DNA of 64,000 nucleotides. Origin: Lachnospiraceae bacterium. GTDB lineage: Bacteria > Bacillota > Clostridia > Lachnospirales > Lachnospiraceae. Within the stretch, counting starts at the first letter, position 1. The number at the start of each line of letters is the position of its first letter. The stretch spans positions 13,280 to 77,279 of the forward strand of contig JAZNXI010000177.1 of the NCBI GenBank assembly GCA_045593825.1, in the 5' to 3' direction. Shown here one piece after another: positions 7,122 to 19,602 of this stretch. A program made the translations under genes and the position numbers. The notes beneath the pieces are model-generated. The model was not told where the DNA came from, searched no databases, and saw only the letters and a program-made list of their open reading frames with translations.

Positions 7122-8513
7122 ATGATTCAACATCACAGTGACCGGGTTTCCGGTTTAACCGTAGCTTACATCGGCGGAGGCTCCCGCGGCTGGGCCTGGG
7201 GCTTTATGACCGACATTGCCTGCGACGAACAGATTTCCGGTACTGTCCGTCTCTATGACATCGACCGTGAGGCAGCACAGCGTAATAAAATCATCGGAGA
7301 AAAAATCTCTGCCCATCCGGATGCAAAATCCCACTGGGACTTCGAAGTGTCCGACAGCCTGAAAGAAGCTTTAACCGGTGCAGATTTTGTTATTATTTCC
7401 ATTCTGCCTGCCACCTTTAAGGAAATGCGTTCCGACGTACACGTTCCGGAACGCTTAGGCATCTGGCAGCCGGTAGGTGACACCGTAGGACCAGGCGGAT
7501 TTATGCGCGCCATGCGTACTATTCCGATGTTTGTGGAAATCGGTGAAGCCATCCGCGACTATGCTCCAAATGCCTGGGTTATCAACTATACCAACCCAAT
7601 GACCATGTGCATCCGCACCTTATACGAGGTGTTCCCTGATATCAAAGCCTTTGGCTGCTGCCACGAAGTATTCGGCACACAGCATCTGCTTTGCACCATG
7701 CTGAAGGAACTAGGCATCGACGAAAATGTAAAGCGCCAGGATATCTACACCACCGTTGTGGGCATCAATCATTTTACCTGGCTGACCCGTGCCACCTGGA
7801 AGGGCATGGACTTATTCCCACTCTATGCGGAATTTGCTAAAAAATTTGCCGGTGGATACTCCAAGGGCAAGGACGAAAACTGGATGAACAACTCTTTTGA
7901 ATGCGCTCACCGGGTAAAATTTGATTTGTTCAACCGTTACGGCGCCATTGCCGCAGCCGGTGACCGCCACCTGGCAGAATTTATGCCGCCATGGTATACC
8001 AAAACTCCGGAAACCGTGAAAGAATGGCAGTTTGGCTTAACTACCGTGGACTGGCGTGAAAACGACTTAAAAGAACGTTTAAAACGCTCTGACGACCTTA
8101 TTTCCGGTGCAGAACCAATTACATTAAAGGGCTCTGGCGAAGAAGGCTACTTACTCATTAAAGCACTGCTTGGTCTCGGCGATTTGGTCAGCAACGTGAA
8201 TGTTCCAAACCGCGGACAAATCGAAAACCTGCCTCTTGGTGTCGTAGTAGAAACCAATGCCCTGTTTGGCTACGACCGCATCGAGCCGGTACATGCCGGA
8301 AAGATTCCTGAAAATATCCTTCCGTTAATTTCCCGTCACGTACAAAATCAGGAAAACATGCTTCGTACCGCATTAACCTGCGACCGCAAGCTGGGGCTTT
8401 CCACCTTTATGAACGACCCACAGATGGGCGCCATTGCTCCTGCAGACGGAGAAGCACTGTTTAACGATATGTTGGAAAACCAGCGCCAGTGGTTACCGGA
8501 AGGTTGGTTTTAG
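7122..8513 (+). CDS. Glycoside hydrolase family 4 (NAD/Mn-dependent alpha-glycosidase; LplD/alpha-galacturonidase-like)
   Basis: Contains VAYIGGGSRGWAWGF (Rossmann), INYTNPMTM and GCCHEV (the GH4 Cys-His metal site). A strong AGGAGGAA RBS precedes the start. Confidence 0.85.
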   Translation: MIQHHSDRVSGLTVAYIGGGSRGWAWGFMTDIACDEQISGTVRLYDIDREAAQRNKIIGEKISAHPDAKSHWDFEVSDSLKEALTGADFVIISILPATFKEMRSDVHVPERLGIWQPVGDTVGPGGFMRAMRTIPMFVEIGEAIRDYAPNAWVINYTNPMTMCIRTLYEVFPDIKAFGCCHEVFGTQHLLCTMLKELGIDENVKRQDIYTTVVGINHFTWLTRATWKGMDLFPLYAEFAKKFAGGYSKGKDENWMNNSFECAHRVKFDLFNRYGAIAAAGDRHLAEFMPPWYTKTPETVKEWQFGLTTVDWRENDLKERLKRSDDLISGAEPITLKGSGEEGYLLIKALLGLGDLVSNVNVPNRGQIENLPLGVVVETNALFGYDRIEPVHAGKIPENILPLISRHVQNQENMLRTALTCDRKLGLSTFMNDPQMGAIAPADGEALFNDMLENQRQWLPEGWF

Positions 8514-8587: not shown

Positions 8588-9106
8588 TTATGGTTCCGGA
8601 GTTGGGGTTGGAGTTCCTGCTACGCCAAACACAATTTGACTCATTCTGGTTCCTTCATAATCTTCATCCTCGTAGTAATACCGCACATCTAAATGAGGCT
8701 GTTTCAATTTATTATATGCCACCTCATATTCCATGACAACACCATCGCCTTGATATTTGCCTGTTGCACGACCATAGTTATTCAGTTCCTCTGTTACATC
8801 AATAACCGTATCGCCATCTACAATGCAAATTCTGTCATCCTCTACTACTAATTTAACGTCCTTTGTAAAAAGCTTTTCCACCCAGGTGCTGCCGGTGGTT
8901 GCATAAGCAACACCGTTACTTCCTGCAAATAAAACCACTGCCGCCACCGCAGCAATGGCAATCCACTTTGCCACGGAACCTGCTTTTTTCTTATTCTTTC
9001 CTTCTTCCATATTCATCAGCCTTTCTGCCATACCTTGCGGGGCATGTACCTCACGAAAGGTTTCCTGATAATATTCCCGGTTCTGTTTTTCCTCGTTCAT
9101 TTCCAT
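8588..9106 (-). CDS. Putative anti-sigma factor (single-pass membrane protein)
   Basis: Overlaps the stop of the ECF sigma gene by 10 nt. It has a cytoplasmic N-terminus, one TM (WIAIAAVAAVVLFAG) and an extracytoplasmic domain ending in TPTPTPEP. Confidence 0.55.
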   Translation of the reverse strand: MEMNEEKQNREYYQETFREVHAPQGMAERLMNMEEGKNKKKAGSVAKWIAIAAVAAVVLFAGSNGVAYATTGSTWVEKLFTKDVKLVVEDDRICIVDGDTVIDVTEELNNYGRATGKYQGDGVVMEYEVAYNKLKQPHLDVRYYYEDEDYEGTRMSQIVFGVAGTPTPTPEP

Positions 9107-9573
9107 GCTCCCTTCAATGTTTCTTTTAGTTTCTGCCTTGCACGCTGAAGTCTTGTCTGAACTGCTGTTTCCGAGAGTTTCATAATCTCTGCAATTTCTT
9201 TTACACTATATTCTTCAAAATAGTACAGATGCACTACCTGTCGGTACTTTACCGGCAGCTCTTTTACGGCATAATACAGTTCGCTCCGCTCCTTCATGGA
9301 AAAGCTTGGCTCCGTCGCCAGCTCCTCCAGATAGGAGATGCGCTTTCTCCACGGTGTGCGCCACAAACTGTGACATTCATTTACCGCCACCCGGATTAAC
9401 CATTTTCTGGCATGCTCCAAGTCCTCAAAAGGCTCCTGCCGCTCCCACAGCTTGATAAAGGTGTTTTGCGCCACATCCTCTGCATCTGCCTTGTTGCGGC
9501 AACCGCTTAATGCCACCCGGTATATGCTGTTCAAATATAATGTTAGTAATTGCTCGTACTCTCTTGTGTCCAT
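9097..9573 (-). CDS. ECF-type RNA polymerase sigma-70 family factor
   Basis: Region 2 (DAEDVAQNTFIKLWER) and region 4 (YYFEEYSVKEIAEIMKLSETAVQTRLQRARQKL) are both present. ATG 9573 follows GGAGAA; the ORF-track start at 9585 is TTG. Confidence 0.85.
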   Translation of the reverse strand: MDTREYEQLLTLYLNSIYRVALSGCRNKADAEDVAQNTFIKLWERQEPFEDLEHARKWLIRVAVNECHSLWRTPWRKRISYLEELATEPSFSMKERSELYYAVKELPVKYRQVVHLYYFEEYSVKEIAEIMKLSETAVQTRLQRARQKLKETLKGAWK

Positions 9574-9644
9574 ACAATTCTCCAATCTTTTGAAAGGCCC
9601 TTCACTTAATGAACGTATGGAAGAAGGAAAATATCACACATTTA

Positions 9645-10562
9645 TTAATTTTTCTTATAATGCAACCAATGAATTCCGTCCTCATACCCAATTTTCTTAT
9701 AGAAGTCATCTCCGCCGCCGGTCATCATCTCGGCACCCAGCGATTTCAACCTTCTGCAATGTTCGGAAAGCGCCGCTGCTGCCAAACCTCTGCCACGGTA
9801 CTCCGGTATAGTACACAACGGTTCCATGTAGGCCAGTTTGTTTTCCGGCACCCACCACATACCGGAGAAGCACACATATTCGTCCTTTTCATCTGCAATA
9901 ATTACGTTATGCCAAAATGTGGAATGCGGCGGAGGCGCCATGGTCGGACCAACCACACCATTATAGGCTCTCTGCGGTGTCCAAGCCTCACCCTCAATTT
10001 TATCATTCCAATGTTCAAATGGTCCCTTGTCTTCATGGTCAAAGCCTTTCCACATGCAAGCAGAAGCCTTGACCGGGTCAGACTTTATCGGGTCCACAAA
10101 GTGAAACCCTTCCGGCAGTGGATAGGTCAAATCACCTTTTGTAAAATCAAAGATATAATCTACATTTTCCCATGCCACCTTATAGCCCCGTTTTTCAACT
10201 TCGTTTCTCAAAGCTTCCTGCCCTGCAAAGAGAATCAGTTCCTGCTCACCGAAATTTGGCATGCATTCTTCTGTATAAGTTACCATCTCTGCTGCCAATG
10301 CTTCGTATCCCGGACGCAGATTAAAGAATACACCGGTAACCGGGTTTTCGTAAAACACAAAAGCTACAACCTTGTCACCATCAAACCAAAGACGGTCTAA
10401 ATATAAATAGTTCTTGTCCATCCAGGAGGACATTAACGCATATTCGAAAAACGGAGCTGCAACCCCGTTTGCAAAGCGGTTATCATAGACTTCTACCATG
10501 AAGTCCCAGACTAAGTTGATGTCTGTTAATTGTTGAAATTGTTTTGTTGTAATGTTTTGCAT
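9645..10562 (-). CDS. GNAT family N-acetyltransferase (305 aa, two-lobed)
   Basis: The C-terminal acetyl-CoA motif A is IPEYRGRGLAAAALSEHCRRL. Confidence 0.7.
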   Translation of the reverse strand: MQNITTKQFQQLTDINLVWDFMVEVYDNRFANGVAAPFFEYALMSSWMDKNYLYLDRLWFDGDKVVAFVFYENPVTGVFFNLRPGYEALAAEMVTYTEECMPNFGEQELILFAGQEALRNEVEKRGYKVAWENVDYIFDFTKGDLTYPLPEGFHFVDPIKSDPVKASACMWKGFDHEDKGPFEHWNDKIEGEAWTPQRAYNGVVGPTMAPPPHSTFWHNVIIADEKDEYVCFSGMWWVPENKLAYMEPLCTIPEYRGRGLAAAALSEHCRRLKSLGAEMMTGGGDDFYKKIGYEDGIHWLHYKKN

Positions 10563-10598: not shown

Positions 10599-11387
10599 TT
10601 ACTGTCCCAGCATTCCTTCAATATCCTTCGCCGTAATAATGGAGTACACCTTTGTTCCGTACTTTTCTTCTATCATGGTGGTTCCCAGGCCCTTAGCTCT
10701 TGCCTCCTCATTGGTCAGGTCAGCAATTACCACCAGGGCTGTCACCTCAATGTCTGCCTGCTCTTTCAAACGGTCAATCCGCTCACAGATGGTAAGTCCC
10801 GTGCTCATCAGGTCATCCACCAGCACCACCTTATCTCCATCCTTTAAGGTGTGACCGCATATCATACGTCCTTTGCTGTCTGCCATCTTCCGGTCGAAGC
10901 AGTAATCCACCGTAACACCGTATTTGTTGAACAATGCACAGGCAGTGGCTGTAGAAAATGCAATGCCATGATAGGCAAGCCCCATCAGCACATCAAAGTC
11001 CAGATTGTTTTCCCTAATGCAGTCGGCAAAATACTCGCCGATTTTTGCTATCTGCGCATTGGAGGTGAACTTTTCTGTATCCAGATAGTAGTTCTTTTTC
11101 TGACCATGCTTTAGTTCGAACTCACCGGTCTTTAAGATGCCGTTGCCAAGCATAAACTTAACAAACTGCTCCTTATAGGTCAGCGCATTCAGCTTATATC
11201 CCATCAGTTCGTCAATGCTGATTCCAAAGTACTCCGCCAGCTTTGGCAAAAACTGAATATCCGGTAGCGCAGATTCGTTTTCCCACTTACTGACCGCCTG
11301 TCCGGACACGCCAAGTGACTCGCCAAGCTGTTCCTGGGTAACTCCCTTGTTCACACGTAATCTCTTAATATTGGTTCCGATTGTCAT
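10599..11387 (-). CDS. XRE HTH domain fused to orotate-phosphoribosyltransferase-like (type I PRT) domain
   Basis: The N-terminus IKRLRVNKGVTQEQLGESLGVSGQAVSKWENESALPD is an XRE HTH. The C-terminus is PyrE-like, with the PRPP loop DKVVLVDDLMSTGLT. ATG 11387 (MTIGTN) is preferred over the ORF-track start at 11459. Confidence 0.75.
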   Translation of the reverse strand: MTIGTNIKRLRVNKGVTQEQLGESLGVSGQAVSKWENESALPDIQFLPKLAEYFGISIDELMGYKLNALTYKEQFVKFMLGNGILKTGEFELKHGQKKNYYLDTEKFTSNAQIAKIGEYFADCIRENNLDFDVLMGLAYHGIAFSTATACALFNKYGVTVDYCFDRKMADSKGRMICGHTLKDGDKVVLVDDLMSTGLTICERIDRLKEQADIEVTALVVIADLTNEEARAKGLGTTMIEEKYGTKVYSIITAKDIEGMLGQ

Positions 11388-11512
11388 TTGTTTTTCCTCG
11401 CTTACTTTGATGTTAAGGCGCCTTACGCATTTACTATAACAGATTTTAAGACAAGGCACAATGGAGGCTCCGTTGGCTTTTATGAAACTGCAGGTTGAAT
11501 TTCTGCAAAAAC

Positions 11513-13087
11513 CTACAGCTCTATCACCCTGTTTGCTACCCGCTCTCCAAACTCCGTATTGTGCTCCACAAACACCAGCGTCAGTTCTTCCTCAGACAAA
11601 GCAGCCTCCAATTGGGCTTTAAACTGCACATCCATATAGTTTAGGGGCTCATCCAAAAACAAAATCTGGTGATGCTCTGCCAGTTTTCTTGCAATGTCCA
11701 CTTTCTTTAATTCCCCACTGCTTAAGGTTTCCAACGGACGACGTTCAAAGTCCGGCGGCACATCAAAGAGCATGCAAAGTTCTTTGAATCTGCGGTAATC
11801 TGCCTGAAGGCCCTCTTTTACGGCACCGCTTCGTTCTGTTGGCTCCTGCGTGATATAGGCAATGGATATTCCGCCTCTTCGACGGATCCCCTGTGCTGAA
11901 AGTCTTCCTGCCAGAAGCTTTAACAGCGTCGTTTTTCCGGCACCGTTTTTTCCCCGCAACCAGATTTTATCGCCCGGATAAATGTGCAGGGTTACATCCT
12001 CTAATACAGGCGTGGACGCTCCTTCGTAGGAAAAGGTTACATGATCTGCCATAAGCAGGCAGTCCCGCTGCGGCTTCTCCTGGGTAATATGTAACTTCCG
12101 TTCTTCCTCCATGTTGCGGAGCAGTTGCTTTTTCGCTGCCAAATTGTCCTGAATGTGCTGCTCTGCCGCCTTTGCCTGCCGCATATAGGCTCTGGTCCCG
12201 TTGGTCCTAAAATGACCCGCAAAAGGGTATTTCTGCTTGTTTCCGATATTGGACCAGGCTCTTGTCTGTTTGGACTGCCACTCCAGCTGGCTGATTTCAT
12301 GCTCCAGCTTTTCTTTTGTTCTGAGTTCAAACTGTTCCTTTAGCTCCATATTGTTATGCCAGGTGGAATAACTGCCTTGCTCTATGGAAATGTCCGCCTT
12401 GTTAATGGCAAGAATGTGGTCGCACACCGCATCCAGAAACTCCGTATCATGAGATGCAATGATATACCCCTTTTTCTTTTTTAGATATTCCTTCAAGTGC
12501 TCCTTCTTTCCCACATCCAGATGGTTGGTGGGCTCATCCAAAAGTACAAAGGTATCTTTTCGAAGGAATAACGCAATAATCAGCATGCAGGTCTGTTCTC
12601 CACCGGACAGCGTATCAAAGTCCTGTTCCAAAAGAGCCTCGGAAAGTCCCATTTGAGATAATTCTTTGCAAATGCCGCTTTCCATGGCATAACCGTCCAG
12701 TTCAAGGTAGCGGTTCAAAACTTCATAATAGGCGACGCTGATGGCTTCGTTATTATATTCTTTACTGAATTGTTCTTCGAATTTAAGTAATTTCAGTTCC
12801 AGTGTCCGAAGTCCTCCGATACATTCCTTCACCACATCCATTGCCTTAGTAAAAGACGCATCGTAAAGGTACGGGAAATAAGACACGGTACCGCTTCGCC
12901 TTATTTCCCCGGAGGAAGGCGTCAGACTTCCTAAAAGCAGCTTCAACAGTGTGCTTTTTCCCCGTCCGTTTCTTCCCACCAGTGCCATTTTCCAATCTGT
13001 GTCTAAATTTACGTTTAAATGTTCAAATACCGGATGATAAAAATCATCGTAATAAAATGTCAAATCTTTTATTTCAATTTGTGCCAT
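11513..13087 (-). CDS. Lsa-family ABC-F type ribosomal protection protein (ARE ABC-F)
   Basis: Two ABC cassettes with no TM domain. The sequence is colinear with Lsa(A) as I recall it: DTDWKMALVGRNGRGKSTLL, LSGGEQTCMLIIALF, LLDEPTNHLD, ILAINKADISIEQGSYSTW, a long inter-domain linker, GKNGAGKTTLLKLL and FLDEPLNYMDV. ATG 13087 follows GGAGAC. Confidence 0.85.
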   Translation of the reverse strand: MAQIEIKDLTFYYDDFYHPVFEHLNVNLDTDWKMALVGRNGRGKSTLLKLLLGSLTPSSGEIRRSGTVSYFPYLYDASFTKAMDVVKECIGGLRTLELKLLKFEEQFSKEYNNEAISVAYYEVLNRYLELDGYAMESGICKELSQMGLSEALLEQDFDTLSGGEQTCMLIIALFLRKDTFVLLDEPTNHLDVGKKEHLKEYLKKKKGYIIASHDTEFLDAVCDHILAINKADISIEQGSYSTWHNNMELKEQFELRTKEKLEHEISQLEWQSKQTRAWSNIGNKQKYPFAGHFRTNGTRAYMRQAKAAEQHIQDNLAAKKQLLRNMEEERKLHITQEKPQRDCLLMADHVTFSYEGASTPVLEDVTLHIYPGDKIWLRGKNGAGKTTLLKLLAGRLSAQGIRRRGGISIAYITQEPTERSGAVKEGLQADYRRFKELCMLFDVPPDFERRPLETLSSGELKKVDIARKLAEHHQILFLDEPLNYMDVQFKAQLEAALSEEELTLVFVEHNTEFGERVANRVIEL

Positions 13088-13103
13088 ATTGTCTCCTGTT
13101 CCA

Positions 13104-13137
13104 ACAATCCAGTAGCACAAATTTGTTACCGGATTGT
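13104..13137 (-). promoter_or_regulatory. Leader hairpin between the uORF stop and the ABC-F RBS
   Basis: On the minus strand, ACAATCCGG, a 16-nt loop and CTGGATTGT form 9 bp including one G-U pair. The 5' arm starts immediately after the uORF stop. The 3' arm ends 7 nt before the GGAG. Confidence 0.4.
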
Positions 13138-13220: not shown

Positions 13221-14780
13221 TTACTGCATTACTTTTGCCAGTCTTCCCTTGCCATCCTCTAATAGTTTAAGCAGACAAACCAGTTCTTCATGCTCCGATG
13301 TAAAATCCTCATCGTTCATATCCATAACGACGTGATGCACCAGCTTAATTATCCGATAGCCCTGCAAGATATCCCAGTCAGGTGCCTCCTTTTGAACCAG
13401 TTCCCGCATACGATTATGAAACTGCTGTTCCTCTTTAAAATCAGGCAATGCAGCCGGCAAATCCATACGCTCATAGGCTGTATTCAGAAGCATCATTAAA
13501 TCTGCTTCTTTTGGTGCAATTGCAGCACACTCAAAATCCATTAACGCTGTTATTTTCCCTTCCTGCCATATGACATTCGCAGGAGTTAAATCCCCATGCA
13601 CCGGTACATATTCCGCCTTTTTCATCGCTGCCTCAAAGCGTTCTATGTACCTTTTTATTTCATTGCATTGCACCTCACTGATTAACTCTTTTGCAAGTAA
13701 AAGTTCCGTTTCTGCCACAGTATTTTCCATCGATGTAATATACCAGAGTGATTTATTTACATATCCCTCTACTTCTTCCGTAGCCACTGTATGCACATAC
13801 TTTACGCGTCTCCAAAGCTGTTCCAGCGCATCTGCTCGCTCTTTCCATGACAGTTTTTCCCACGCATCCTCCAAATTTGTTCCGGAAATCCGTTCGCACA
13901 GCACCCAATCATACCCATCTGTTCTTCCGCTGTCCACAATATCCGGATACCCTGCTGCTTCCGGCAGTAATTCTGCCAATTTTGTCTCACGACGCAGACG
14001 ACCACTTTCCAAGTTGGACGTAAAACGAAGTACTAAATTTCCTGTCGCATAAACATGGTTTGTCCAACCTCCTGAAAGGCGTTCCGGTTCAGAATTTTCA
14101 CCATGTGATTTAAAGATTGCACACATAAATTGTAACATTGAAAATTCCCGAATCGCTTCAGTTTCAAATCCATCATAAATCAATCCCTGCCACTCGCATT
14201 CTCCACAATACACCTCCAAAAACTTCTCAAACCCGAACCTTTCGATAAAGTGCCACACATAAATCCCGGCATAATCATACCCGCCGTTATCCACGAAATT
14301 ATCAAATCCGACCAATTCGGAAAGCTTCGGATATTCCGTTTTACTGACATACTGTAACTCCGTCTGCTCCGCATAAAGAACAGCAATTCCTTCTGCAATC
14401 CATACTTCCGCATCATCTTCTGCCACACCGGTAGCATCATCAAACATCATATGTACCAATTCGTGAACCGCCACCTTTTTCATGTCCTGACTTGCCGCTT
14501 CCGCGCTTGCATTCGGAGAAAGCAGGCAAATGGTATGAGTGTCTACATTGGAATGACCAACCATCCAATCCTGATAATCCTCCTTTGTCTTTCCGGTCTT
14601 TTCGATATACTCCTCCACGCTGTTGCAAAGTTGAAACGTATATTTTTGTGTTGCCTCCTTAAACTGAAATGCAGTTTGAATTCCTTTGTACTTATCCTCC
14701 AAAAGTGTGATAAACTGCTCTGCCAAAGCCGCTTCTGCGTCGTGATAATGTGTAATAAAATGTGTTGTTTCGTTTATCAT
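13221..14780 (-). CDS. Fusion protein: gluzincin-like (Peptidase_MA_2-type HExxH) N-domain + aminoglycoside/macrolide phosphotransferase-like (APH family) kinase C-domain
   Basis: The N-domain has VHELVHMM and, 18 residues on, IAEGIAVLY (HExxH...E). The C-domain has HGDLTPANVIW (HxDxxxxN) and LMDFECAAI (the DFG-equivalent Asp). AAGGAGGATTAATT precedes the ATG. Confidence 0.7.
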   Translation of the reverse strand: MINETTHFITHYHDAEAALAEQFITLLEDKYKGIQTAFQFKEATQKYTFQLCNSVEEYIEKTGKTKEDYQDWMVGHSNVDTHTICLLSPNASAEAASQDMKKVAVHELVHMMFDDATGVAEDDAEVWIAEGIAVLYAEQTELQYVSKTEYPKLSELVGFDNFVDNGGYDYAGIYVWHFIERFGFEKFLEVYCGECEWQGLIYDGFETEAIREFSMLQFMCAIFKSHGENSEPERLSGGWTNHVYATGNLVLRFTSNLESGRLRRETKLAELLPEAAGYPDIVDSGRTDGYDWVLCERISGTNLEDAWEKLSWKERADALEQLWRRVKYVHTVATEEVEGYVNKSLWYITSMENTVAETELLLAKELISEVQCNEIKRYIERFEAAMKKAEYVPVHGDLTPANVIWQEGKITALMDFECAAIAPKEADLMMLLNTAYERMDLPAALPDFKEEQQFHNRMRELVQKEAPDWDILQGYRIIKLVHHVVMDMNDEDFTSEHEELVCLLKLLEDGKGRLAKVMQ

Positions 14781-15028
14781 AATTAATCCTCCTTATTTTC
14801 CAAAGGAAAATGCCCGCCCACTGATTGCGGGCAGAGGATTTTCCCTCCAGTCTGTAAAAAAAGCATGAAAAAAGAGCCTGAGAATCCTCCCACGCAAATA
14901 AAAAAGACCCACTTGTCATGCATATCATCAGAGCACACAAAGAAACACCCATTCCTTTACAGGTGGGTTATTACTTTCTGTCTCTATGCATTTCGTGGAA
15001 TCTTATCTGCGAATAATCAAGTTCTCAA
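14781..15028 (-). promoter_or_regulatory. Promoter plus about 210-nt structured 5' leader of the fusion-kinase/ABC-F operon
   Basis: The minus strand has TTGAGA-17-TAAGAT at 15000-15028. A GC-rich hairpin, TGCCCGC/GCGGGCA at 14811-14833, is followed by UUUUCCUUU about 20 nt before the start codon. A second 7-bp pairing, GAGGAUU/AAUCCUC (14834-14840 with 14883-14889), abuts it. Confidence 0.35.
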
Positions 15029-15108
15029 CCTCTTATTAGTTTGTGTTATTTTGTTACCAAGGGGAATTGTAGCACAATTCCCCTTGAGTGTCAAATGTTA
15101 TCTATAGC

Positions 15109-16500
15109 CTATTCAATCCCAATCAGCCTTACTAACCCTTCACTATAATCCACAATACCAAAGGCCGTATTTTTTATTGTAGCATTAAAGGCATTCTTTG
15201 CAGAAAATTCTGTCATTACAAATAAGTCGCCGACTTCAACCCTGTGGGAGTATCCGGCATCTGCCAAAATTCCGTTGACATAATCTCTTTTATCCTCTGA
15301 GGCTATATCAATATATGTGGTCTCAATATGTTTGAACGATTTTTCATCATTTAAGTTATCTTTAATCAGGTCTTTAAGAACGGTATGACTTCCGTCCCAG
15401 GCGCTGAACTGGCTTTTAATCCACTCATTGCGTTCTGTCTTAAATTCACTGCTCATGGAAGCCACTTCATAATTGCCTTTTGCATCGATGGAACCAATGG
15501 CTAAGCAGGTACCATCCAAGCCTTCTTTTACATCGCCAAAAGAAAAAATAGCTTCTGTCTTTACATCCAGTTTCTGGAGTTCTGTTGCTATCTCTGCAAG
15601 AACATTCTTCACTTCCTGTTCGCTGTTTTCGCAGCAAATAGCGCAGGTTGCAATTAGGCCATCCGAATCTTCCGCAGAAATAATTTCTATTTCTCCTACT
15701 TGTCCCGAAAACTCCTTAATAACACGTTTTATCGTATCTGCTACCATCTTGGAAGGAGAATCAAATTTCTCTGTTTCGATTATAGTTCCACACACGATAC
15801 ATTTTTTCTGCTTAGTGCCCTGTTCTTCACTGGTTCCTTCGTCAACAATTTCCCATTCCCCCGGATTATGAGAAAGTGTTGTTCCTTCTGTTTCCCCGCA
15901 TACATTACAAGTCTTTGGCAATGAACAGGTTGCTACTGTCCAAGTATGAGACTTATCTGCGCTTAATGGTTCTCCCTCTTCTAAGCCGCAGTAGGAACAT
16001 ACTTTAGGCGTGATACATGTAGCATTTACCCATGTGTGATTTTTTACATTTCCTTCTGTTTCATTACAAATCAGACATGTCTTAGGGGTAATACAAGTCG
16101 CCGCTATCCAGTTGTGTCCACCCTTCTCCCCTTCTGTCGCACCACATAACTTACAGATTTTTGGATTTTCACAATCTGCTTCCTTCCATTCATGTTCCAG
16201 AATCGGTAGTACCTCTTCCATTTTCTTTTCACACTTTATGCACTGATGCACATTTTTCCCAGCTTCCGCACAGGTTGCCTTGGTAGATTCGGTAAGAATA
16301 TACTCATGCTCGCAATTACTTTGCGGATCCGTGAATCCAAAGAGCATGGCAGAAACAATAACTCCAATAAAACATCCCACAATTCCCCATGCAGTCTTCT
16401 TTAGAGGCTTTTTTCTGATTGCCTTAATTATCAAAGCAAAAACCAAAACCGGAATCGCCAAGATAAAAGCAAACACTAAAAAAGAAAATAAAATACTCAT
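15109..16500 (-). CDS. Membrane-anchored protein with tandem His/Cys repeats and a C-terminal SAWDGSH-type domain
   Basis: Two N-terminal TM helices flank a Lys-rich loop, followed by repeated HxWxxATCxxPKxCxxCG units. The C-terminus contains QFSAWDGSHTVLKDLIKDNLNDEKSFKHIETTY. A strong AAAGGAGGAAGAG RBS precedes the start. Confidence 0.7.
   Translation of the reverse strand: MSILFSFLVFAFILAIPVLVFALIIKAIRKKPLKKTAWGIVGCFIGVIVSAMLFGFTDPQSNCEHEYILTESTKATCAEAGKNVHQCIKCEKKMEEVLPILEHEWKEADCENPKICKLCGATEGEKGGHNWIAATCITPKTCLICNETEGNVKNHTWVNATCITPKVCSYCGLEEGEPLSADKSHTWTVATCSLPKTCNVCGETEGTTLSHNPGEWEIVDEGTSEEQGTKQKKCIVCGTIIETEKFDSPSKMVADTIKRVIKEFSGQVGEIEIISAEDSDGLIATCAICCENSEQEVKNVLAEIATELQKLDVKTEAIFSFGDVKEGLDGTCLAIGSIDAKGNYEVASMSSEFKTERNEWIKSQFSAWDGSHTVLKDLIKDNLNDEKSFKHIETTYIDIASEDKRDYVNGILADAGYSHRVEVGDLFVMTEFSAKNAFNATIKNTAFGIVDYSEGLVRLIGIE
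15793..16314 (-). repeat. Coding repeats: 4 clear (plus 2 degenerate) copies of a 26-30 aa H-x-W-x3-C-x2-P-K-x-C-x2-C-G/N-x-x-E-G unit
   Basis: The clear copies are HEWKEADCENPKICKLCGATEG, HNWIAATCITPKTCLICNETEG, HTWVNATCITPKVCSYCGLEEG and HTWTVATCSLPKTCNVCGETEG. The flanking degenerate copies are C63..C90 and H211..C237. Confidence 0.7.
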
Positions 16501-17546: not shown

Positions 17547-19304
17547 TTATCTTCTCACCAGCTCCACCAACTGCTCCAAACTCATCTCTCCAAGCTCCTG
17601 CTTATCAAGCTCACCATCTCTCTGCCGTACGGAAACAGAACCGTTCTTCTGCTCATTCTCGCCCACGATTACCATAAACGGCACCTTATCCATACGTGCT
17701 TCGCGGATTTTGTAGCCAAGCTTTTCATTGCGCAAATCTAATTCTGCCCGAACATCTGCATCTTCCAATTTTTCAGCCACTTCTTTTGCGTAGTCCATGT
17801 ACTTATCCGAAACCGGAAGAATTTTTACCTGCACCGGAGCCAGCCAAGACGGGAACTTTCCAGCGTAATGCTCAATTAAAATGCCGATAAAGCGCTCAAT
17901 GGAACCGAATACCACACGGTGCAGCATAATCGGGCGGTGCTTTTCGCCGTCGGCACCGATGTACTCAATACCAAAGCGCTGCGGCAGCTGGAAGTCTAAC
18001 TGAATCGTGCCGCACTGCCACGTTCTGCCAAGGGAATCCTTTAAATGGAAGTCAAGCTTCGGTCCGTAGAAGGCACCGTCCCCTTCGTTTACCACATAGG
18101 ACTTGCCAAGGCCAATAACCGCCTGCTCCAGAGCCTTCGTTGCCAACTCCCATTCTTCATCACTGCCGATGGAATTTTCCGGTCTCGTGGATAATTCGAT
18201 TTGATAGGAAAAACCAAACTTTGCATACACCTTATCAATCAGTCTCATCACGCCCTGAATCTCGTCCATCACCTGGTCTTCACGCATGAAAATGTGGGCA
18301 TCATCCTGCGTAAAGGAACGGACTCTCATAAGACCGTGCAGCGTGCCGGACTTTTCATTGCGGTGCACCAGACCAAGTTCTGCCATGCGGATTGGCAGCT
18401 CCTTGTAGGACCTTGGCTGCAGCTTATACACCAGCATGCCGCCCGGACAGCTCATCGGCTTGATGGCGTAATCCTCATCCTCCACCTGCAGGGAATACAT
18501 CGTTTCTCTGTAGTGGTCCCAGTGACCGGACGTCTCCCAAAGGCTTCTCTCCAACATAATCGGCGTAGACACCTCCACGTAAGCCTCTTTGCGGTGAATT
18601 TTTCTCCAGTAATCAATGAGGAGATTCTTTAACACCATGCCCTTTGGCAGAAACACCGGAAGACCCGGACCTTCGTCAAAAATTGTAAAGATACCCAGCT
18701 CCTTGCCAAGCTTTCGGTGGTCTCTTGCCTTTGCTTCCCCCAGTAGGCGAAGATATTCCTCCAACTGGGATGCCTTTGGGAAAGAGATACCGTAAATTCT
18801 CGTTAACATCGGATTCTTTTCATCGCCCCGCCAATAAGCACCGGCCACAGATAACAGCTTGATTGCCTTAATCTGGCACACATTGGAAATGTGCGGACCT
18901 GCACAGAACTCCTCGTACTCGCCCTGCTTATAAAAGCTGATACGCACGTCATCAGCCAGTTCTCTGATAAGTTCCAGCTTGTACTGCTCCCCTGCCGCTT
19001 CCATGTAGGCAATGGCTTCTTCCTTCGACTTTTCACTTACCTGCAAAGAAAGGGATTCCTTCACAATCTTTTTCATCTCCTCTTCGATTGCGCTTAAATG
19101 CTCGTCAGAAAACGGGAAATCAAATTCAAAATCATAGTAAAAACCGTTTTCAATTGCCGGACCGATGGCACATTTCGTTTCCGGATACAACCGCTTTACC
19201 GCCTGGGCAAGCACATGGGCACTCGTATGCCAAAATGCCTTTTTCCCTTCCAATTCCTCAAATTTCACTTCCATTACTTCGTTGTTGTTTTGTAGAACCT
19301 TCAT
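17547..19304 (-). CDS. thrS: Threonine--tRNA ligase lacking the N-terminal TGS domain
   Basis: Contains the editing-domain motif WHTSAHVLAQAVKRLYP, the class II core (FTQDDAHIF, GAFYGPKLDF) and an anticodon-binding C-terminus. ATG 19304 follows AAGGAGGAAATG. Only about 20 aa precede the editing domain. Confidence 0.92.
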   Translation of the reverse strand: MKVLQNNNEVMEVKFEELEGKKAFWHTSAHVLAQAVKRLYPETKCAIGPAIENGFYYDFEFDFPFSDEHLSAIEEEMKKIVKESLSLQVSEKSKEEAIAYMEAAGEQYKLELIRELADDVRISFYKQGEYEEFCAGPHISNVCQIKAIKLLSVAGAYWRGDEKNPMLTRIYGISFPKASQLEEYLRLLGEAKARDHRKLGKELGIFTIFDEGPGLPVFLPKGMVLKNLLIDYWRKIHRKEAYVEVSTPIMLERSLWETSGHWDHYRETMYSLQVEDEDYAIKPMSCPGGMLVYKLQPRSYKELPIRMAELGLVHRNEKSGTLHGLMRVRSFTQDDAHIFMREDQVMDEIQGVMRLIDKVYAKFGFSYQIELSTRPENSIGSDEEWELATKALEQAVIGLGKSYVVNEGDGAFYGPKLDFHLKDSLGRTWQCGTIQLDFQLPQRFGIEYIGADGEKHRPIMLHRVVFGSIERFIGILIEHYAGKFPSWLAPVQVKILPVSDKYMDYAKEVAEKLEDADVRAELDLRNEKLGYKIREARMDKVPFMVIVGENEQKNGSVSVRQRDGELDKQELGEMSLEQLVELVRR

Positions 19305-19602
19305 GCTACATTTCCTCCTTGTTTTTGAAATATTTTCAATAACACAAGAAAAGCACCCATAAGACCATATCACTACAGTCTTAAGGGTGCATTTAGCACG
19401 GTTCCACCTTAACTTTTCACTTCAGATTCCAACAAATCCTATCCTTTAACGCAGGCATACGGTAACACTTACTGACATTGGGCGTTACAGCTCTGGAATG
19501 GTTTTCGTCTACGTTCCGCATAAGCAACTTCCACCAAATGCTGCTCTCTCTGGATGCTTTCCGGTAAACTACTTGTTTCCGTCAACGCTTTTCTTATGTT
19601 AT
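19305..19602 (-). promoter_or_regulatory. T-box riboswitch leader, Thr (ACC) specifier
   Basis: On the minus strand the stem I AGAGA region is followed by a specifier loop GAAAACCA, with ACC at 19500-19502. The T-box core is GTTAAGGTGGAACCGTG (about 19398-19414). The terminator GCACCCTTAAGAC / GTCTTATGGGTGC plus UUUUCUU lies at 19345-19390. Confidence 0.85.

Follow-up and report, generated by a model that had tools for sequence, protein, structure and literature searches.

What does a zinc-hydrolase-like domain joined to a kinase contribute to an operon for ribosome protection? The question is raised by a gene in a 64,000-nt stretch of DNA from a Lachnospiraceae bacterium (contig JAZNXI010000177.1 of assembly GCA_045593825.1, positions 13,280 to 77,279; hereafter the window, meaning the whole stretch), which encodes a 519-aa protein with an N-terminal HExxH domain (the N-domain) and a C-terminal APH-like kinase and lies upstream of a leader peptide and an Lsa-like ABC-F gene (Table 1). 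The original prediction, made from the letters of the sequence, read the kinase fusion and the ABC-F gene as one operon. Our analysis indicates that the fusion is authentic and very probably shares one transcript with the leader peptide and the ABC-F gene, and that the usual operon partner of this ABC-F is the HExxH module of ~215 aa and not the kinase. Throughout, L numbers (L001, L002 and so on) denote related loci or assemblies, and P numbers (P0044 and so on) homologous proteins.

Integrity of the fusion gene and properties of its two halves

A search of 5.8 billion proteins recovered nine 90%-identity clusters of fusion orthologues of 518–519 aa (74–79% identity), and in-frame copies were found in the independent assemblies L001, L002, L003, L004, L013 and L045, with kinase halves 70–87% identical pairwise. 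The AlphaFold2 model of the fusion, built on a 74-sequence alignment, reached a pLDDT of 95.8 and a pTM of 0.88. In this model the domain junction is a single helix (residues 205–225), the kinase being joined in frame onto the C-terminal helix of the HExxH module. Each half is also known as a stand-alone protein, as would be expected if a sequencing or assembly frameshift had united two adjacent genes, an artefact that the original prediction had itself raised as a possible refutation. We consider the chance of this negligible, because the frame is unbroken in at least six independent assemblies whose kinase halves have diverged to the extent given above; moreover, no locus examined carried the N-domain and the kinase as neighbouring separate genes, and the model combines a continuous junction helix with a confident domain arrangement. 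Sequence and comparison show that the protein truly consists of two domains and that the catalytic motifs of each are intact; from sequence and model both halves look catalytically competent.

The HELVH and EGIA motifs from which a gluzincin-type site had been proposed were located at residues 106–110, on a predicted helix spanning residues 100–117, and at E130, on a second helix (126–137) and 19 residues after H110 (17–19 across the family). Across 23 homologues, the most distant at 35% identity, no change occurs at H106, E107, H110 or E130, and further invariant positions are K64, W72-M73, G75, D114, a GGYDYxGxYV block, Y168, Y170 and Y174. The helix bearing the glutamate, with its M1-like W[IL]xEG[IF]A pattern, aligns with the WLNEGFA motif of M1 peptidases. 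Modelled alone, the N-domain gave a pLDDT of 95.1, and its top Foldseek matches in the PDB were all gluzincins: LTA4H, IRAP, APN, Vibrio M9 collagenase (TMq 0.63, the highest value), aureolysin, thermolysin and anthrax lethal factor. Families M1, M4 and M9 were thus represented. Motifs and Foldseek matches together support the proposed Peptidase_MA_2-like assignment and point to an MA-clan, gluzincin-like fold.

Pfam matches on the N-domain itself were sub-threshold, both for Peptidase_M1 (residues 82–140, E 5e-4, 20.1 bits against a cutoff of 27.7) and for Peptidase_MA_2 (PF13485; residues 70–139, E 2.6e-3, 18.0 bits against a gathering score of 32.4). Precomputed PF13485 matches exist on several homologues 62–86% identical to the N-domain of the window, and the threshold is passed by the distant homologues P0103 (49.7 bits) and P0186 (114.9 bits). 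The N-domain shares the HExxH-x(17-19)-E motif and the thermolysin-like fold with the catalytic domains of Peptidase_MA_2/M1 enzymes (LTA4H, APN, ERAP), from which it differs in its size of ~215 aa, its sub-gathering Pfam score and the absence of flanking domains and of GxMEN. In place of this exopeptidase motif there is a conserved EEYQxWMVG, ~34 residues upstream of HExxH, and the 214 residues include neither the N-terminal beta-sandwich nor the C-terminal helical domain of M1 enzymes, nor any signal peptide or transmembrane segment. With GxMEN and the flanking domains absent, the domain is no M1 enzyme but belongs to the Peptidase_MA_2 neighbourhood, as a minimal form able to exist alone. 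NCBIfam models gave no meaningful family for the N-domain or three of its homologues, and literature searches on PF13485/Peptidase_MA_2 and on antibiotic resistance (ARE) ABC-F proteins with a metallopeptidase returned nothing relevant. Two other identities were dropped, an ImmA/IrrE-type regulatory protease and a lanthipeptide-related protein (LanKC or M1-peptidase): family matches did not go beyond the generic kinase loop, and neither a precursor nor a repressor was paired with the gene.

For the kinase half, Pfam APH (PF01636) matched residues 233–452 (E 3e-20, 73.3 bits against a cutoff of 23.2). The HGDLTPAN and MDFE motifs already noted from the sequence lie at residues 395–402 and 414–417. 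Both are unchanged throughout 23 kinase homologues, as are H395, D397 and N402 of the HxDxxxxN catalytic loop and the metal-binding D415; the fold is of the bilobal APH kind. The Foldseek matches were APH(2'') and APH(4) enzymes (E ~1e-10, TMt 0.55–0.69, 14–18% identity), while a profile search of PDB sequences matched the catalytic loop of MphH only (E 0.002, 41 residues). The best NCBIfam model was APH_3p, which scored 48.3 bits where 205 are required; the NCBIfam scan of the fusion listed no Mph model, and the kinase half reached none of the cutoffs of the named resistance kinase families APH(3'), APH(2''), APH(9) and Mph. Stand-alone kinases of 309 aa, 55–68% identical, occur in unrelated contexts with no ABC-F. 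Identity to the window is 70–76% for the kinase, 79–91% for the N-domain and 83–94% for the ABC-F.

Stand-alone HExxH alleles and the link to the ABC-F gene

When the pairing of the fusion with the ABC-F gene was surveyed, the same slot in the closest relatives was found to hold a stand-alone HExxH protein without the kinase as well. These alleles, from loci L008–L012 and L014, lie in the same synteny, in genomes with threonyl-tRNA synthetases 90–96% identical, and are followed by the same uORF2 (the second upstream open reading frame, uORF), hairpin and ABC-F gene, with the same spacer of ~140 nt. Stand-alone HExxH proteins measure 217–221 aa and are up to 87% identical to the N-domain of the window, and trees of the N-domain and of the ABC-F alike show them scattered among the fusion forms. 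Since stand-alone alleles fill the slot of the fusion and stand-alone kinases occur elsewhere, the comparison indicates that the kinase is an optional, polymorphic in-frame appendage.

The HExxH/ABC-F pair occurs in two genomic neighbourhoods, near thrS, as in the window, and between PadR and carB, as in L015. The order in L015 is attenuator, uORF2, ABC-F, 38 nt and HExxH, so that the HExxH gene stays in the controlled unit.

The leader peptide's ribosome-binding site had been placed about 20 nt from the stop codon of the fusion gene, and its GGAGG indeed lies 21 nt downstream of it; nor does the minus strand have any terminator-like site from 14780 to 11513, in keeping with the original claim. 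The part of that claim that joined the two genes in one operon also holds, in that a shared transcript is very probable on the arrangement of the sequence, while the part that made the kinase fusion the pairing unit of the ABC-F does not. It is conceivable that the ABC-F gene has a transcript of its own, started at an internal promoter in the 3′ portion of the sequence encoding the kinase; a promoter-like site with 10/12 matches lies within the kinase coding region, at 13936..13908. We regard this as improbable. The promoter-like sites found numbered 7 against 7.3 expected from shuffling, no terminator separates the genes, and the stand-alone alleles, which lack that region, keep uORF2, the ABC-F gene and the ~140-nt spacer; a conserved internal promoter is improbable because the two kinds of allele have unrelated 3′ ends in front of the same uORF2 and ABC-F.

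Control elements of the operon

All window-clade loci share a strongly conserved stretch of ~230 nt ahead of the HExxH gene. The promoter is present in every window-clade locus that reaches far enough upstream, with an equivalent in L015 and L029. The first upstream open reading frame, uORF1, is conserved at 9 loci; two independent 3-nt insertions, both in frame, yield MIIRIR-stop and MIIRRR-stop, and in L015 and L029 it reads GTG/TTG ATC ATT CGT AAA TAA (MIIRK-stop). Because the insertions are in frame and the changes in L015 and L029 are synonymous or conservative, these comparisons indicate that uORF1 is read as codons.

The 5′ leader is predicted to fold into one extended helix, at whose base the Shine–Dalgarno sequence (SD) and start of uORF1 are paired with the segment right before a run of 6–7 U residues; two hairpins nested in it are also followed by U-runs. 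The fold has a z-score of −4.9 relative to shuffled controls, and RNAalifold, applied to 10 loci including L015 and L029, returned 58 pairs, 11 of them with compensatory changes. A scan of 9–20 kb against Rfam, at E values up to 1, found only the T-box of thrS and matched neither leader.

A further hairpin, just upstream of the fusion gene, is specific to the window among the N-domain-first loci. As the attenuator terminator of the operon this hairpin (14835–14813) was rejected, being missing in L001 and L013 and preceded by conserved terminators further upstream. The hairpin-plus-SD element (14805–14845, minus strand) has a homologue ahead of uORF2 in L015 (4215–4262) and L029 (4258–4305). 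The sequences suggest that the HExxH gene recombined in at the start of uORF2, both beginning with ATGAT. In L001 and L013 the element seems to have been lost by deletion between two GGAGG(G)A repeats.

uORF2 is kept at 9 loci, behind fusion and stand-alone alleles alike, and in L015 and L029 just its MII(F/K) start is retained. The stem of the hairpin that follows is maintained across loci, including L015 and L029, by G-U and compensatory changes, which makes it a probable translational attenuator element. A pairing of the hairpin loop with the ABC-F start, seen in the minimum-free-energy structure of the window, was not relied on, as the complementarity is absent in L015 and L029. In the fusion-type locus L013, the uORF2 hairpin is separated from the ABC-F start by an insertion of ~150 nt (~7690–7845), the SD/start context differs and the ABC-F is shorter (515 aa). 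The ABC-F of the window scored 380.5 bits on the NCBIfam Lsa family model (cutoff 750) and is 33–35% identical to plasmid-borne Lsa(E) and other annotated ABC-F proteins.

Distribution of the HExxH family and its other fusions

With the N-domain as query, an exhaustive HMMER search through 1.84 billion representative proteins returned only 151 proteins at E ≤1e-3, the closer matches being mostly stand-alone proteins of ~215–230 aa. Other fusions of the module join it to GNAT (P0046, P0047), a second type of APH-like kinase (P0045), NTP_transf_2 (P0069), NUDIX (P0173) and a SAM methyltransferase (L019); P0044, P0058 and L024 carry further domains. The partners GNAT, APH, NTP_transf_2, NUDIX and SAM methyltransferase are all small-molecule-modifying folds. 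In P0044 (L007, 2125–5926) the HExxH domain, 71% identical, is followed by a 230-aa C-terminal domain containing DIDILIPG; its gene comes after two ABC ATPase genes (~620–630 aa), and APH-family and GNAT genes lie 2–3 kb downstream.

A tblastn search of PLSDB plasmids with the N-domain gave no match, and the DNA pattern of uORF1 plus its SD had zero matches in JGI metagenomes. A protein-based scan of the JGI metagenomes found only distant homologues (33–41% identity), beside which no ABC-F rose above weak generic ABC-ATPase similarity (L031, 25% over 175 aa). PADLOC found no defence-system match for the fusion.

Comparison with known systems

Pairs of an ABC-F gene and a macrolide phosphotransferase gene are familiar from msr(E)-mph(E) and msr(A)-mph(C). 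As in the window, an APH-fold kinase there stands beside a ribosome-protection ABC-F, and drug modification next to target protection, so the novelty that the original prediction implied for the pairing of kinase and ABC-F was inaccurate; such pairings are already known in principle. The window kinase differs in matching no NCBIfam Mph model, its sole sequence link being the MphH catalytic loop, and in being fused to a zinc-hydrolase-like domain, encoded upstream of the ABC-F and optional among close relatives. The bifunctional AAC(6')-Ie/APH(2'')-Ia likewise unites two drug-modifying folds in one polypeptide, and its APH(2'') is among the best structural matches of the kinase half (14–15% identity); its partner domain is however GNAT, and it has no operon link to an ABC-F.

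The layout matches that of the mefA/msrD operon (MEGA) of macrolide resistance, which has two leader peptides, MTASMRLR and MYLIFM, in the order promoter, leader peptide/attenuator, first resistance gene, an SD shortly after its stop, second leader and ARE ABC-F (10.1101/2021.11.29.470318). The window locus shows the same dual-leader layout, conserved in 9 loci. It differs in that the first gene of mefA/msrD encodes an MFS efflux pump and that of the window a hydrolase-kinase, in that the leaders are unrelated to MIIRR and MIIFTRPE..., and in that the second element of the window, having no obvious terminator, looks translational. The ARE ABC-F genes cplR, vmlR, vmlR2 and lsaA have uORFs of 3–4 codons, and in these and lmo0919 the uORFs (MRI, MIN, MK[L/Q], MAGN) are followed by a terminator, with translational attenuation in addition (10.1101/2022.12.05.519065). 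The short uORF-attenuator design resembles that of the window, except that in those genes the attenuator directly precedes the ABC-F, whereas in the window an enzyme gene comes after the attenuator and ahead of the leader of the ABC-F itself. With both uORFs conserved at the peptide level and compensatory pairs in the terminator helix, the window has a short-uORF attenuator of the ARE ABC-F type, presumably with a similar function.

Already known, then, are the pairing of drug modification with ABC-F protection, dual-leader control and bifunctional modifying enzymes. New are the HExxH-APH domain combination, the presence of a small MA-clan family within an ARE-type attenuator unit and the uORF pair MIIR(R/K) and MII(F/K).

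Proposed mechanism and alternative explanations

By analogy with cplR, vmlR and mefA/msrD, we infer that the locus is induced by ribosome-stalling drugs, under a scheme in which the operon would run from the promoter through uORF1 and its terminator helix to the HExxH/APH fusion, and on through uORF2 and its hairpin to the Lsa-like ABC-F. In the absence of drug, a ribosome would clear the five codons of uORF1, the leader helix with its U-run would close and transcription would stop. If a drug arrested elongation at an early stage, the stalled ribosome would mask the 5′ strand, and RNA polymerase would read into the fusion gene and the ABC-F gene, uORF2 acting as a second gate, on ABC-F translation. 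Because the HExxH gene of the window clade follows the attenuator and comes before the leader that belongs to the ABC-F, it would be induced whenever the ABC-F is.

Our tentative preference, to which we would give slightly less than an even chance, is that the locus is a translation-stress (antibiotic)-inducible operon in which the HExxH module is the conserved partner of the ABC-F and the fusion an accessory detoxifying enzyme, co-induced with target protection. The module would most likely be a cytosolic zinc amidohydrolase or peptidase acting on a small peptide-like compound, either an inhibitor of translation or a by-product formed when translation is arrested; the kinase, where present, might add O-phosphorylation of the same or a related compound. 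Amide-bond hydrolysis and phosphorylation of one compound or related ones is speculative, and we offer a 'modification plus target protection' module as a hypothesis.

The main rival holds that the HExxH protein, together with any kinase attached to it, is a general cytosolic 'house-cleaning' or metabolite-modifying enzyme unconnected in function with translation inhibitors, beside which a mobile attenuator-ABC-F cassette happened to land; rearrangement at the site would then have intermixed them, co-transcription being incidental. This account we rate as a substantial possibility, albeit on the doubtful side. Most family members are stand-alone proteins of ~220 aa with no ABC-F nearby: none was found within 5–6 kb of homologues at ≤48% identity or of several at 62–73%, and the HExxH/ABC-F link is limited to one Lachnospiraceae sub-clade, with N-domain identities of at least 63%. 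In L040 the HExxH gene heads a cluster with Metallophos, HIT, Ham1 and NUDIX genes. L043 is syntenic with L015 and has no ABC-F, and L029 has the ABC-F with just a 79-aa C-terminal remnant of the HExxH gene, from which the HExxH motif is lost. The kinase, moreover, is the polymorphic and fastest-evolving part of the locus, present or lacking among near relatives, and its stand-alone relatives sit in unrelated contexts. Several further points weigh, with these, against the operon reading that we prefer: neither half of the fusion reaches any curated resistance-family cutoff in NCBIfam, the ABC-F falls just below that of ribo_prot_ABC_F (ARE; 367.9 against 380 bits), the Foldseek E-values of the N-domain are weak (~0.01–0.1, though probabilities reach 1.0), and the covariation in the leader comes mostly from two outgroup sequences, the attenuator being near-uniform within the window clade. 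Because L043 does without the ABC-F and the HExxH gene of L029 is truncated, the partnership is dispensable, and the comparison of loci indicates an association that is real and lineage-restricted. Against a mere passenger stand the position of the HExxH gene inside the attenuator-controlled unit in two different gene orders, its location between the attenuator and the ABC-F's leader throughout the window clade, and the recurrence of the pair in the two neighbourhoods near thrS and between PadR and carB.

The sub-threshold Pfam matches and weak Foldseek E-values, together with the absence of the accessory domains of M1, M4 and M9 enzymes, would also suit a non-catalytic pseudo-peptidase that binds a ligand or partner, for instance presenting a peptide antibiotic to the kinase, as the original prediction had suggested as one reading. 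We think this improbable, given that HExxH, the third-ligand glutamate and the Tyr cluster are invariant down to 35% identity; nor can the N-domain be merely an adaptor for the kinase, because the module is mostly found without one. Bolder than the operon reading, and in our view unlikely though distinctly less so than a pseudo-peptidase, is the proposal that the module represents a new class of cytosolic, translation-stress-induced zinc hydrolase working with ARE ABC-F proteins, that the protein of the window is a bifunctional resistance enzyme and that the family is a modular drug-processing one. Such an enzyme would either inactivate a peptide-like antibiotic directed at the ribosome or remove a toxic product that arises when a drug arrests translation, and the fusions to GNAT, nucleotidyltransferase, NUDIX and methyltransferase domains would then mark a modular family of drug-processing enzymes.

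In the usual view an ARE ABC-F is a single attenuator-controlled gene; here, in gut Lachnospiraceae, a putative zinc-hydrolase family lies inside that transcript. If the enzyme acts on a translation inhibitor, a hydrolytic mechanism, with a phosphorylating one where the kinase is present, would be added to the commensal resistome, and present-day catalogues of resistance genes would miss it, as neither half triggers a curated model. The conserved uORFs, MIIR(R/K)-stop and MII(F/K)..., would form a compact natural sensor whose inducing drug class is testable. If the enzyme is instead a passenger, the locus still illustrates how attenuator-ABC-F cassettes recombine with neighbouring genes.

Table 1. 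Positions of the operon features in the window
Feature	Position	Strand	Description
Promoter	15066..15094	(-)	sigma-70 type, TTGACA-17-TGcTACAAT (extended TG); 11/12 consensus matches
5′ leader, putative transcription attenuator	14860..15065	(-)	one extended helix, two nested hairpins
uORF1	15003..15020	(-)	TTG ATT ATT CGC AGA TAA (MIIRR-stop); SD AAGAGG 15034-15029
Terminator-like site in leader	14965..14946	(-)	
Hairpin GGGAAAAUCC...GCAUUUUCC	14805..14845	(-)	precedes SD 14794-14788; scored terminator-like
Fusion gene	13221..14780	(-)	519 aa; stop TAA 13223-13221
N-domain, aa 1-214	14139..14780	(-)	predicted minimal cytosolic MA-clan (Peptidase_MA_2-like) zinc-hydrolase domain; H106, E107, H110, E130
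C-domain, aa 215-519	13221..14138	(-)	predicted APH-fold small-molecule kinase; H395, D397, N402, D415
uORF2	13188-13138	(-)	16 codons, MIIFTRPEIATKTIIL-stop; SD GGAGG 13200-13196
Hairpin ACAATCCGGTA / TACTGGATTGT	13103..13137	(-)	right after uORF2 stop, 6 nt before ABC-F SD
Lsa-like ABC-F gene	11513..13087	(-)	524 aa, ATG at 13087; probable ribosomal-protection factor

Neighbouring genes

The threonyl-tRNA synthetase gene (17547..19373, minus strand) is preceded by the T-box leader at 19380–19594 on the same strand (Rfam RF00230, 108 bits, E 1e-23). Between this gene and the operon, 15109–16500 (minus strand) encodes a 463-aa protein with an N-terminal membrane anchor and many repeated Cys-x2-Cys pairs, zinc-ribbon-like, for which Pfam, NCBIfam and PADLOC gave no significant match; L008 and L010 encode a copy at 92% identity, which the other relatives lack. 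In L008 (5163–5555) and L010 (1855–2247) a ToxN_toxin gene (type III toxin-antitoxin/abortive infection) sits between the gene for this protein and the attenuator-HExxH-ABC-F unit.

Just downstream of the ABC-F gene, 10599–11459 (minus strand) encodes an XRE-type HTH_3 domain fused to a phosphoribosyltransferase domain, called in L001 (6404–7191) as two genes of 60 and 201 aa. In L005 (3491–4282) a homologue with 55% identity is encoded upstream of the gene for OMP decarboxylase, a hint that the protein may be a regulator connected with pyrimidines. Further on, an ECF sigma factor gene (9097–9585, minus strand) overlaps a probable anti-sigma gene for a membrane protein (8588–9106, minus strand) and, together with the gene for a 305-aa GNAT protein (9645..10562), forms a block that is conserved downstream of the ABC-F in L008–L010.

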